NCBI GenBank assembly: GCA_964400475.1 | Contig: CAYNTH010000002.1 | Location: 991 to 64,990 of the forward strand | From: an uncultured archaeon | GTDB taxonomy: Archaea > Aenigmatarchaeota > Aenigmatarchaeia > CG10238-14 > SCSR01 | Direction: 5' to 3' | Length of the DNA stretch: 64,000 nucleotides | Shown: positions 13,612-44,832 of the stretch, piece by piece | Layout of the letters: each line of letters opens with the position of its first letter | Numbering within the stretch: position 1 is the first letter of the stretch | The notes under the pieces: model-generated | Told to the model about the DNA's origin: nothing | The model's input: the letters and a program-made list of their open reading frames with translations, nothing else | The model's database searches: none | Made by a program: the position numbers and the translations under genes

Positions 13612-14304
13612 TCACTTGAATTTCTTGGCTTTTTTCTTAGCTATGTCACTGACAACGTCCTTAAGTCCTAGTCCCACAGCTATAGCTATTCCTGCACCGA
13701 GCGCACCAACTATTATGAGTAGTATGCTGTTGACCAACATTGCGTTAATGCCTACTAGAGGCAGAGCAAGTGCGACGGCTATGTACTGTACTAACCAGAA
13801 TACAGCTTTACCCATTATATTTGAGTAAACAGCTTTTCCCTTTTCTATTTGGTCTTTTAGATATTCGGCGAATATGTAGCCCAATATTACTATTATCACT
13901 GCTTGTACTAATCCAGGGATGAAGCTTATTATCATTCTTACGAATTCTTCCAAGGCAACAACGCCGAGCGTCTCTACGGATGCTTGTATGAACACCAGAT
14001 ATACCGTCCACTCGAATATGAGTGGAAATATGTCGCTAAGTTTGAACATCGGTGTTTTCTTGCCTATGTAATGATCAATCTTGAATTTGATCATTATTTC
14101 CTTGGTAATCCTCGAAATTACTGCGCCTATTATCCAACCTATTATTAACAACAATGCCGCTGCGATTAGGTTCGGTACGAATAGTATCACTGAACTTAGG
14201 AAAGATTCTAGAGGTTGTGTCAATGGTTGAATTAACTCATTCATATGAATCTTACCTGATATAGAATTTGGTTCTCTCCCTTTAAATGTAATCCTTCCCG
14301 TCAT
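13612..14304 (-). CDS. Multi-pass membrane protein (conserved TM-helix repeat type)
   Basis: 230-aa ORF with 4-5 hydrophobic spans and a KKKAKKFK tail. The real start may be the internal MNELIQ. No enzyme motifs. Confidence 0.55.
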   Translation of the reverse strand: MTGRITFKGREPNSISGKIHMNELIQPLTQPLESFLSSVILFVPNLIAAALLLIIGWIIGAVISRITKEIMIKFKIDHYIGKKTPMFKLSDIFPLIFEWTVYLVFIQASVETLGVVALEEFVRMIISFIPGLVQAVIIVILGYIFAEYLKDQIEKGKAVYSNIMGKAVFWLVQYIAVALALPLVGINAMLVNSILLIIVGALGAGIAIAVGLGLKDVVSDIAKKKAKKFK

Positions 14305-42540: not shown

Positions 42541-43629
42541 TTATCTTGTTATCTTGGCATTCTTGACGGTCTCGTATAATTTATTGGCTTTTTTATCCTT
42601 CTCGAAGTGTGTTCTTATAGGTTCTATCACTTCATCTATTGCTTCTGCTGTTGCGTTCTTTAAATCCAATGGGTGTAGATCTCCCTTTCTGTATAATTTA
42701 GATAGTTCGTCATATGATTGTACTTCTAAGTCACCGCCGAACTTGGACGGTCTCTTGATTTCGAGAGTGTTCATTTTCTTGAACACTATGTATTTATTAT
42801 ACTCCATTATTGGGTTGTTTTTTATTACCTTGGCCGGACAGAAAGCATTCTTTAACTTCTCTTTTATCTGTTCTTTGCTGTCGTGTACGAATATGGATGT
42901 TGATGGTCTACTCTTGCTCATCTTTGAACTTATCTGAACGTCGTATTCCTTTTTATCATCGAGTCCATCAGGTCGTTTTTCCCCTTCCAATCCCATTAGC
43001 ATGTGATGGCTGACAACTACAGGTTTCCACCACCCCAACTTCGGTCCTACTTCTCTTGCGAGCATATTTGCTCTTCTTTGGTCCAAACCAAGTTGACATA
43101 TATCTGCTTTTAGCCAGAATATATCAGCTGTCTGCATCATTGGGTAAAAAAGTAGTGCAGTGTCTTTGCTCTCTCCTTGTTTACGGCCCGCTATCGACAA
43201 GCATCTTGTGGATCTTGACAATGTCGTATTCTTTGCAATCAATATTACTTTCTTCCAATATTCTGGGTCTTCGATTGCATTACTCGTCCATTCTACGGTT
43301 ACTTTGTCCATCGGTATTCCCGCGGCCTTCCAGACTTCTACGAAATACTTTCCACATTCTTTTATCTTTTCAAGGTCGCCTCCGAGCTTGTTGTTGAGCC
43401 AGGCGAACCAATCCGCTACATATAGTTTGAAGTGTATCCCAGCATCTATCATGTCCTGTACGTTTATAGCTCGCAGAACTCCGAACGCGATGTGTGCGAG
43501 ACCGCTCGGTTCGAATCCATCGTACGCTATCGGGTGTTCTTTCGTTTCCAACAGTTCTCTCAATTCTTTCCTAGTAATTATTTCCTCCCCGACACCTTCG
43601 ATTAATTCCATTCTTTTTTCGATATCCAT
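42541..43629 (-). CDS. tyrS: Tyrosyl-tRNA synthetase (long archaeal type)
   Basis: 362 aa. IAYDGFEPSGLAHIAFG aligns with the archaeal TyrRS YIGFEPSGKIHLGH region. Also ADWFAWLNNKLGG, KMSKSRPSTSIFVHDS..IKEKLKNAFCP. TrpRS not fully excluded. Confidence 0.78.
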   Translation of the reverse strand: MDIEKRMELIEGVGEEIITRKELRELLETKEHPIAYDGFEPSGLAHIAFGVLRAINVQDMIDAGIHFKLYVADWFAWLNNKLGGDLEKIKECGKYFVEVWKAAGIPMDKVTVEWTSNAIEDPEYWKKVILIAKNTTLSRSTRCLSIAGRKQGESKDTALLFYPMMQTADIFWLKADICQLGLDQRRANMLAREVGPKLGWWKPVVVSHHMLMGLEGEKRPDGLDDKKEYDVQISSKMSKSRPSTSIFVHDSKEQIKEKLKNAFCPAKVIKNNPIMEYNKYIVFKKMNTLEIKRPSKFGGDLEVQSYDELSKLYRKGDLHPLDLKNATAEAIDEVIEPIRTHFEKDKKANKLYETVKNAKITR

Positions 43630-43680: not shown

Positions 43681-43881
43681 CTATCTGTAACAAAATCCCA
43701 CGTCTTCTACGTATTTCAACGAATCGGACTCCATGGAGAATTTATATACGTTGCTGTCCCCTTGGTAAAATTCGACCATATCATCTCTGTCGAATGCCAC
43801 CAATTTCATGCCCATATTTTCAAGTGTTTCGGTCGTATATGACTTTCCCTCTATCAGTTTTATCTCTCCCATTTTATTCAC
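43681..43881 (-). CDS. Hypothetical small protein (66 aa)
   Basis: Third gene of a tightly packed trio (2-nt gap to the upstream ORF). No family recognised. Confidence 0.4.
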   Translation of the reverse strand: MNKMGEIKLIEGKSYTTETLENMGMKLVAFDRDDMVEFYQGDSNVYKFSMESDSLKYVEDVGFCYR

Positions 43882-43883
43882 CT

Positions 43884-44225
43884 CTATCTGAATGGATCGT
43901 AAAAATAATAGGATTCATTTTTCCCATCTATTTTAGATCCCATGTTGTTAATCTTGCTTGGGTATTTTACAGACACCTCTCTATACGGGTGTCTACTTTC
44001 TATGTTCAATCCATCCATTGTCGTGATTCTTAGGTCATTTTCAGGCGATACATATATCATATCCATCTCATCTGGCGATACCATCCGATACAGCATATCA
44101 AGTGAACGCCTCTTGTTACCAATCAATTCTTTTATGGTTTCTACAACCTGTTCCTCATCGACCAATCGTTTTTCCTTTCCGGTACATTCCATTATTAATC
44201 GACATTTTTTATTCATCATATTCAC
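43884..44225 (-). CDS. Hypothetical small protein (113 aa)
   Basis: Middle gene of the trio (4-nt gap to the upstream ORF). No family recognised. Confidence 0.4.
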   Translation of the reverse strand: MNMMNKKCRLIMECTGKEKRLVDEEQVVETIKELIGNKRRSLDMLYRMVSPDEMDMIYVSPENDLRITTMDGLNIESRHPYREVSVKYPSKINNMGSKIDGKNESYYFYDPFR

Positions 44226-44229
44226 CCAT

Positions 44230-44469
44230 TCACAGTTTCAATGTCTTGAGACCTATTACATCGTTCTGATTGATTTTGTATGGACCCTTGTCTATGTTGA
44301 TTATGTTGATGTCCGTTCCTATGTGGACAGCGTACCCTTCGATTTTTTCTGTTCTGTTGTCATTTGTCAGGTAAGCGACTTCTAGCATTCCCACATACTT
44401 GTCTCTCTTCAATTCGCTTAGAGTTTCTTTTACTTCTTCCAGTCCTTTACATCTTTCTATTTCAATCAT
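44230..44469 (-). CDS. Hypothetical small protein (79 aa)
   Basis: First gene of the trio. GGAGGT RBS on the - strand (complement of 44476-44481, about 6 nt before the ATG at 44469). No family recognised. Confidence 0.4.
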   Translation of the reverse strand: MIEIERCKGLEEVKETLSELKRDKYVGMLEVAYLTNDNRTEKIEGYAVHIGTDINIINIDKGPYKINQNDVIGLKTLKL

Positions 44470-44514
44470 GTTCTATACCTCCTTTATTCATTAATTTTTA
44501 ATATCGTGAAAATC

Positions 44515-44703
44515 ATCTGGAGGTCTTGTCCTCCCCTACACATAGCCTAGTCTAATGTTGTGAAATTCGGCATTGCGCAAGGAACTAAGGAGAAGACCTC
44601 AGAAGTCAGCAACAATAAGAGCCGAACCTGTTTTGTCTATAGAAATAATCGTAGACAAACCATGTGATTAGTTCGTTCGGCATATTAGAGTTATTAGCTG
44701 ACA
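44515..44703 (+). ncRNA. Candidate structured non-coding RNA (class unresolved)
   Basis: No ORF on either strand. Nested perfect helices: 44605-44610/44697-44702, 44621-44627/44675-44681, 44632-44639/44652-44659. Also a 10-bp helix 44517-44527/44593-44602 with one bulged G. Ends ..GCUGACA followed by a T-rich tract. Confidence 0.3.
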
Positions 44704-44832
44704 TTTTCTATCTTTCTCTATTATAGAAATCATCATTTTTAAGTCTTGTGTACTCTTCGTTCACAGTTACATTTAAAAAAGCTTATGATGTCGAATATAC
44801 AAACATATTGTATAAAAACTATAGATGATTGT

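Follow-up and report, generated by a model that had tools for sequence, protein, structure and literature searches.

The window analysed here is a stretch of 64,000 nucleotides (positions 991-64990 of contig C2) from an archaeal genome of 649 kb in 15 contigs that is 88% complete and whose gene content suggests a DPANN-type organism. In this window, a spacer of 363 nt (44470-44832) lies between a minus-strand ORF of 79 aa (44230-44469) and the plus-strand gene of a beta-CASP ribonuclease (Table 1). The 79-aa gene is the first in a compact row of three small minus-strand genes, beyond which lies tyrS. A sequence-only reading of this DNA had described the spacer as unusually long, free of ORFs and richer in G+C than its flanks. 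It is indeed long for this genome (about the 90th percentile of ORF-free segments) but not extreme, and the region contains no ORF of 36 aa or more. The G+C enrichment, which had been judged by eye, is borne out by computation, with values of 0.40-0.44 inside (42% overall) versus 0.27-0.30 in the flanks; the mean for the ORF-free segments of the genome is 0.35.

Table 1. Features of the locus between tyrS and the beta-CASP gene (positions in the window).
Feature	Position	Strand	Description
tyrS	42541-43629	-	
Three tightly packed orphan genes	43681-44469	-	79, 113 and 66 aa; each with a Shine-Dalgarno (SD) sequence
SD AAGGAGGT	44477-44484	-	8 nt; 7 nt before the ATG (44469) of the 79-aa gene
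A/T-rich box	44486-44506	+ or -	Between hairpin 1 and the SD of the 79-aa gene; scores 8.4 and 6.6
Hairpin 1	44516-44603	+ or -	About 88 nt; lower stem of 15 bp (4+7+4), all Watson-Crick
Hairpin 1 stem blocks	44516-44519/44600-44603; 44521-44527/44593-44599; 44529-44532/44588-44591		
Hairpin 2	44605-44702	+ or -	98 nt; nested perfect helices of 6, 7 and 8 bp
Hairpin 2 helices	44605-44610/44697-44702; 44621-44627/44675-44681; 44632-44639/44652-44659		
ACA and T4	44701-44707	+	ACA overlaps the last two stem bases
BRE/TATA-like CAAGACTTAAAAATGA	44733-44748	-	Putative; predicted start near 44712
BRE/TATA-like AGCTTTTTTAAATGTA	44768-44783	-	Putative; score 7.5; predicted start near 44747
beta-CASP/metallo-beta-lactamase ribonuclease gene	Start 44833	+	428 aa

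Two hairpins stand side by side in the spacer. All of the helices proposed in the sequence-only reading are present exactly where they had been placed, and all are perfectly Watson-Crick. The lower stem of hairpin 1 carries a bulged G44520 and one G-G mismatch, and its distal part depends on the strand that is read, with 8 bp including three G-U pairs on the plus strand and 9 bp including three G-U pairs on the minus strand. The nested helices of hairpin 2 are set apart by asymmetric internal loops of 10/15 nt and 4/15 nt and are capped by an apical loop of 12 nt. As had been noted, the last helix ends in ACA (44701-44703) followed by a T-rich tract (TTTT, 44704-44707). Read on the plus strand, this T4 could mark the 3' end of an RNA, in the manner of an archaeal oligo-T terminator; comparable short T runs follow tRNA genes in the same genome. 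Since the core pairs of both hairpins are Watson-Crick throughout (36/36, no G-U), the core helices do not reveal the strand.

Folded with RNAfold, the 211-nt stretch 44510-44720 reaches -61.2 kcal/mol (z -4.95) on the plus strand and -64.6 kcal/mol (z -5.5) on the minus strand. None of 200 dinucleotide-preserving shuffles was as stable on either strand, which is the control that the sequence-only reading had proposed. When the hairpins are folded alone, hairpin 1 gives -31.6 kcal/mol (z -3.6) on the plus and -37.0 kcal/mol (z -5.3) on the minus strand, and hairpin 2 gives z values of -4.8 and -4.7, respectively. We also scanned the plus strand of the whole genome in 200-nt windows with a step of 100 nt (6,453 windows), regressing fold energy on G+C content. 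In G+C-corrected stability the element ranks fifth among the 6,453 windows, and it is the only one near the top that neither overlaps an ORF of at least 80 aa nor has a tRNA or rRNA identity; the others at the top fall in rRNA, in coding sequence or in tRNA-like genes with introns. The generic claim of a candidate structured RNA therefore survives both the shuffle control and the genome-wide ranking.

The scan also drew attention to other places in the genome. The third-ranking window (13911-14110; -63.1 kcal/mol, 40% G+C) lies inside a minus-strand ORF of 230 aa. Three top-stability windows, all outside the analysed stretch, resemble tRNA genes with long introns that were not called by ARAGORN, which called 25 tRNAs genome-wide: C7:30007-30165 (+), C1:~103083-103190 (-) and C2:~69279-69375 (+). 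One of these tRNA-like genes has the sequence GGGCCTGTAGCTCAG ... GGGTTCGAATCCCGTCGGGCCCA and carries an insert of some 85 nt.

Searches of the region with the Rfam 15 covariance models, including those for riboswitches, T-box, ribozymes and tRNA, gave nothing at gathering thresholds, and relaxing the E-value to 10 added only two junk matches of 16-17 bits versus cut-offs of 50-52. ARAGORN found no tRNA in the region, and a tRNA, split tRNA, riboswitch, T-box or ribozyme is without model or motif support. The sequence-only reading had also entertained SRP RNA and RNase P RNA. Both are encoded elsewhere in the genome above Rfam cut-offs, SRP RNA at C6:34940-35212 (119 bits) and RNase P RNA at C4:25927-26253 (91 bits), and the element has no match to the respective models, RF01857 for SRP RNA, which is expected once per genome, and RF00373 for RNase P RNA with its CR-I to CR-V core. 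It resembles these two RNAs in being structured, G+C-enriched, ORF-free and a few hundred nucleotides long, but it scores on neither model. A box C/D sRNA would have a C box (RUGAUGA) and a D box (CUGA) some 50-60 nt apart, with internal C'/D' boxes. The plus strand offers only GUGAUUA (44664) and CUGA (44698), 27 nt apart, and the minus strand AUGAUGA (complement of 44730-36) with no CUGA within 120 nt; C and D boxes are thus wrongly arranged on either strand, and the Rfam C/D match has an E-value of 8.5. What lies in the spacer is a real, statistically exceptional, ORF-free two-hairpin element that falls outside every Rfam family tested.

The element appears to be confined to this genome. 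A BLAST search with 44480-44730 against 40 relatives returned no match. A covariance model built from the sequence and fold of the element (193 positions, 65 pairs) was run against 69 further genomes from the family and 117 from the order and recovered only the element itself, and it gave no match at the nearest syntenic loci even with filters off. The sequence-only reading had named missing conservation of the helices in relatives as evidence against its own proposal, and this is what we found. Of 60 family genomes, 59 have an orthologue of the neighbouring beta-CASP gene, and in 30 relatives whose loci were oriented the spacers upstream of it are either short or have 21-30% G+C, with fold z values from -1.3 to +2.4. 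In the closest relatives (TyrRS identity of 82-84%), the regions upstream of tyrS have other content and no fold of comparable stability. Metagenome contigs supplied no closer relative, the best beta-CASP identity being 53%. In one relative (G060; L060:2960-3150), a 109-aa ORF next to tyrS is followed, further upstream, by a spacer of 150 nt that ends in a T8 run on the minus strand; this spacer has no significant fold (z -1.5 to -1.9) and no match to the element.

In several relatives tyrS (-) and the beta-CASP gene (+) are directly adjacent, whereas here they are separated by the three small genes and the structured element. Because the gene trio and the element are both missing from relatives, the segment of about 1 kb from 43681 to 44703 is a lineage-specific insertion with the element at its outer end. 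The proteins of the trio are orphans in every collection searched: they have no homologue in 69 family genomes, only self-matches among 5.8 billion protein clusters, no match in Pfam, PHROGs or PADLOC, and nothing usable in the ESM Atlas. An exhaustive HMMER search of 1.84 billion representatives with the 113-aa protein returned the protein itself and one marginal match. AlphaFold modelled the 79-aa protein with low confidence (pLDDT 65), and the model matched no fold. A decayed copy of a neighbouring gene from relatives was also considered, and tblastn with their upstream proteins matched only the N-terminus of tyrS.

Signals for transcription and translation were sought with a BRE/TATA weight matrix built from the upstream regions of the tRNA, SRP RNA and RNase P RNA genes of this genome; on this matrix the known RNA-gene promoter sites score 8.3 on average. 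The A/T-rich box can be read in two ways. On the plus strand it is TATA-like and lies about 22 nt before the base of hairpin 1, and on the minus strand it lies directly 5' of the SD of the 79-aa gene. It is placed too near this gene to act as the promoter of its 5' UTR, since transcripts initiated some 22 nt from the box would begin at the ATG or beyond it. The SD itself is strong (any SD 5-mer occurs in 3.5% of random 15-nt windows), and its presence implies a transcribed 5' UTR. Other SD-bearing first genes of the genome (18 examples, such as C1:105872, C3:27070 and C4:1873) usually also have an A/T box directly 5' of the SD, at a distance too short for it to be the TATA box of that transcript, and such boxes may be A/U-rich translation enhancers or a sign of long leaders in this lineage. 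By analogy with these genes, the real promoter is probably further upstream, which here means beyond the hairpins. The A/T box aside, the top matches of the scan are indeed the two minus-strand sites beyond the element (44768-44783 and 44733-44748). A promoter in this position favours a minus-strand leader of about 240-275 nt. The TATA at the outer site, read on the plus strand (TTTAAAAA, 44772-44779), probably serves the beta-CASP gene. On the plus strand, the best match before hairpin 1 reaches a score of 5.2 and would start transcripts near 44520 (44517-44525). Purine content is 0.527 on the plus and 0.473 on the minus strand, and 0.535 in the SRP RNA.

From these features we infer that the element is probably a structured RNA peculiar to this lineage, whether leader or small RNA. 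Our tentative preference, held with less than even confidence, is for a minus-strand 5' leader of the orphan 79/113/66-aa operon. The single-copy element would have arrived or arisen together with the three genes as part of the 1-kb insertion between tyrS and the beta-CASP gene. Transcription would start from a BRE/TATA-like site past the element (about 44733-44783), so that both hairpins would precede the strong SD of the first gene. Several observations point in this direction: the fold is more stable than shuffles and nearly all other windows of the genome; the G+C content of the element exceeds that of its flanks and of the equivalent spacers in relatives; the element and the gene trio are missing from relatives together; the 8-nt SD needs a 5' UTR, and the lone TATA-like box between hairpin 1 and the SD would start transcripts at or past the ATG. 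Hairpin 1 is also more stable when read on the minus strand (-37.0 vs -31.6 kcal/mol; z -5.3 vs -3.6).

Read on the minus strand, hairpin 1 contains ACCUCC (complement of 44519-44524), whose 6 nt are all complementary to the SD GGAGGU some 35 nt further downstream. In the folded stem ACCUCC pairs with an SD-like GAGGU. Folded hairpin 1 would thus expose the SD, and opened hairpin 1 would let ACCUCC pair with it; given this complementarity, the leader could control the translation or the stability of the operon. When the putative leader is folded in full, however, the minimum-energy structure leaves the SD unpaired (z reduced to -2.75), so that the switch is allowed by the fold but not predicted by it. 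There are further points against a leader. The element has no homologue and hence no covariation, its 36 all-Watson-Crick pairs would also suit young inverted repeats at the DNA level, and purine content slightly favours the plus strand. The promoter scores are modest, and A/T-rich spacers yield many TATA-like matches. We know of no long structured leader documented for this kind of archaeon. The nearest parallels are bacterial translational riboswitches, RNA thermometers and translational T-boxes, which share with the minus strand of the element a stable hairpin, an anti-SD-like ACCUCC, a strong SD and an operon downstream. The element differs from them in that it matches no Rfam riboswitch or T-box model (E up to 10), has no conserved ligand-binding core and no relatives, is archaeal, and has a predicted ground state that leaves the SD free.

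If transcribed, the element would join a very short list of regulatory or structural RNA candidates that have been described in DPANN-type archaea in addition to the universal ones. Genomes of this type are so reduced that a retained non-coding structure of 190 nt is unlikely to be neutral, and, through its association with three orphan genes, the element would allow the entry of new RNA-plus-protein modules into a minimal genome to be studied on a small and tractable example. The value of the case is limited by the fact that the element is known from one metagenome-assembled genome only. It is also useful to have SRP RNA, RNase P RNA and an H/ACA guide struck off the list of candidates.

The first alternative to a leader is an independent plus-strand small RNA of about 190 nt (approximately 44517-44707), divergent from the 79-aa gene; we regard it as almost as probable as the leader. 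Transcription of such an RNA would be driven by the A/T box (44486-44504) and stop at the T4 after hairpin 2, and the RNA would act in trans or as a cis-antisense RNA to the minus-strand leader. A G+C-rich island within an A/T-rich spacer is a classic signature of archaeal small-RNA genes, and the element is such an island. The hairpins fill almost exactly the space from the start predicted for the TATA-like box (44517-44525) to ACA-TTTT, and the plus strand is mildly purine-rich, as in the SRP RNA, RNase P RNA and rRNAs of this genome. The promoter match, however, scores 5.2 compared with the mean of 8.3 for known RNA genes, and the predicted start may sit within the stem of hairpin 1. The genome holds no complementary stretch of at least 16 nt, the best being a 15-mer with an E-value of 0.12, and the RNA would have neither a family match nor conservation. 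A plus-strand gene would furthermore leave the SD-bearing 79-aa gene without a promoter. Both transcripts may also exist, as a leader and a cis-antisense RNA.

Less probable, although still a sizeable minority option, is that the element has no RNA function and is a DNA-level feature or relic: a remnant of mobile or viral DNA that brought the orphan genes, a protein-binding or recombination site, or recent palindromic junk. This would suit the 36 perfect core pairs without G-U, the equally good folding of both strands and the position of the element, single-copy and restricted to one genome, at the edge of a lineage-specific insertion of orphan genes. Its being single-copy in the genome removes a repeat, MITE or paralogue from consideration, and we found no second copy and no terminal inverted repeats. 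An 8-nt direct repeat, AAATCATC (44510 and 44727), is at chance level. The three nested helices differ widely in their spacings (12, 47 and 86 nt), an arrangement unlike that of known protein-binding palindromes. A replication origin is unsupported, with Orc1/Cdc6 encoded on another contig (C1). The block has no real similarity to viral, plasmid or defence-system sequences apart from a 50-nt match of 86% identity between 44455-44504 and positions 401-448 of Muninn virus (OM716000.1, an Odinarchaeum virus), at the start of a 74-aa gene. This match covers only the MIEIE codons, the SD AAAGGAGGTATA and the A/T box. Since the 79-aa and the viral 74-aa proteins are otherwise unrelated, it looks like a convergence of start signals. 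An exact 22-nt match to a Deltaproteobacteria MAG had no extension and was treated as chance.

A more ambitious proposal, which we consider improbable, joins the two-hairpin RNA and the three translationally coupled orphan proteins into one self-contained, recently acquired module. It would be an RNA-protein particle or a small mobile or viral DPANN cassette, with the RNA as partner or regulator of the proteins, and would represent a class without described counterpart.

It is very unlikely that the element serves the beta-CASP gene as a conserved 5' leader or autoregulatory operator, comparable with the rne leader of E. coli: it does lie upstream of this gene on the same strand, and the extended plus-strand fold pairs 44511-44518 with AGAUGAUU (44823-44830) just before the ATG, but the corresponding spacers in 30 relatives are short or A/T-rich and unstructured (z range given above), none of the orthologous loci carries the element, and the TATA-like box at 44772-44779 stands between element and gene.

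The last candidate, raised in the sequence-only reading, is a two-hairpin archaeal H/ACA guide that pseudouridylates rRNA with Cbf5, Nop10 and L7Ae, and it can hardly be maintained. Published criteria for archaeal H/ACA RNAs call for a helix H1 no shorter than 7 bp, two pocket strands each 5-11 nt in length, a helix H2 of 5-6 bp, a K-turn or K-loop with tandem sheared G-A pairs above H2 to bind L7Ae, an ANA box, usually ACA, immediately 3' of H1 and 14-15 nt from the target U at the top of the pocket, and a bipartite target around an unpaired UN in rRNA or tRNA (PMC2377435). The element departs from these criteria in distance, K-turn and target. The earlier reading had itself remarked that the distance from pocket to ACA was over the canonical value, and the 19-21 nt in hairpin 2 do exceed the published 14-15 (PMC2377435). 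Hairpin 2 combines an H1 of 6 bp with pocket strands of 10/15 nt and an H2 of 7 bp, and in hairpin 1 the 15-bp lower stem alone consumes the permitted distance. No descriptor match was found on the plus strand even with H1 relaxed to at least 5 bp and any distance. Inspection of sequence and folds by eye revealed no K-turn or K-loop above a 5-6-bp H2; the nearest GA/GA arrangement (G44619 A44620 with G44688 A44689) needs a bulge of 6 nt, not 3 nt. The three plus-strand pockets have no bipartite target of at least 8 bp above shuffle level in the organism's own 23S and 16S rRNA, a single 8-bp match for the hairpin 1 pocket being at shuffle level.

The minus strand fares little better. Read there with AGA as the box, hairpin 1 has helix and loop lengths that formally satisfy the descriptor, but the "pocket" is self-complementary and, in the minimum-energy fold, paired shut, H2 would have 9 bp and lack a K-turn, and the pocket matches in rRNA and tRNAs are at chance level. 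On the side of a guide there are the ACA directly 3' of hairpin 2 and the AGA after hairpin 1, and the protein partners: the genome encodes Nop10 and two L7Ae-family proteins, and the sequence-only reading places a Cbf5 gene in the window. A search of the genome for Gar1 (PF04410) found none, which counts against a guide, yet its absence is not demonstrated, since the same model misses Gar1 in a Sulfolobus control and the genome is 88% complete. With Nop10 and L7Ae present, guide RNAs are plausible in this organism; the element itself answers to none of the guide criteria tested. Archaeal H/ACA sRNAs such as the Pab and Pf sRNAs of Pyrococcus and sR-h45 of Haloferax resemble it in their series of one to three hairpins with a large internal loop, in the ACA or ANA placed directly 3' of a hairpin and in their setting as a G+C-rich island in an A/T-rich spacer. 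The element differs from them in its ANA-pocket distance of 19-21 nt, its 3' pocket strand of 15 nt, and the lack of a K-turn or K-loop and of an rRNA or tRNA target.

The 16S rRNA gene, which lies outside the analysed stretch (C3:70356-71525, minus strand), showed an anomaly of its own. It is matched in three pieces, corresponding to model positions 385-485, 497-828 and 829-1467, and after GGTAGCCGTA the usual 3' end, GGATCACCTCC, does not follow. The cause may be an insertion, an intron or a fault of the assembly, and the anomaly bears on SD usage in this genome.
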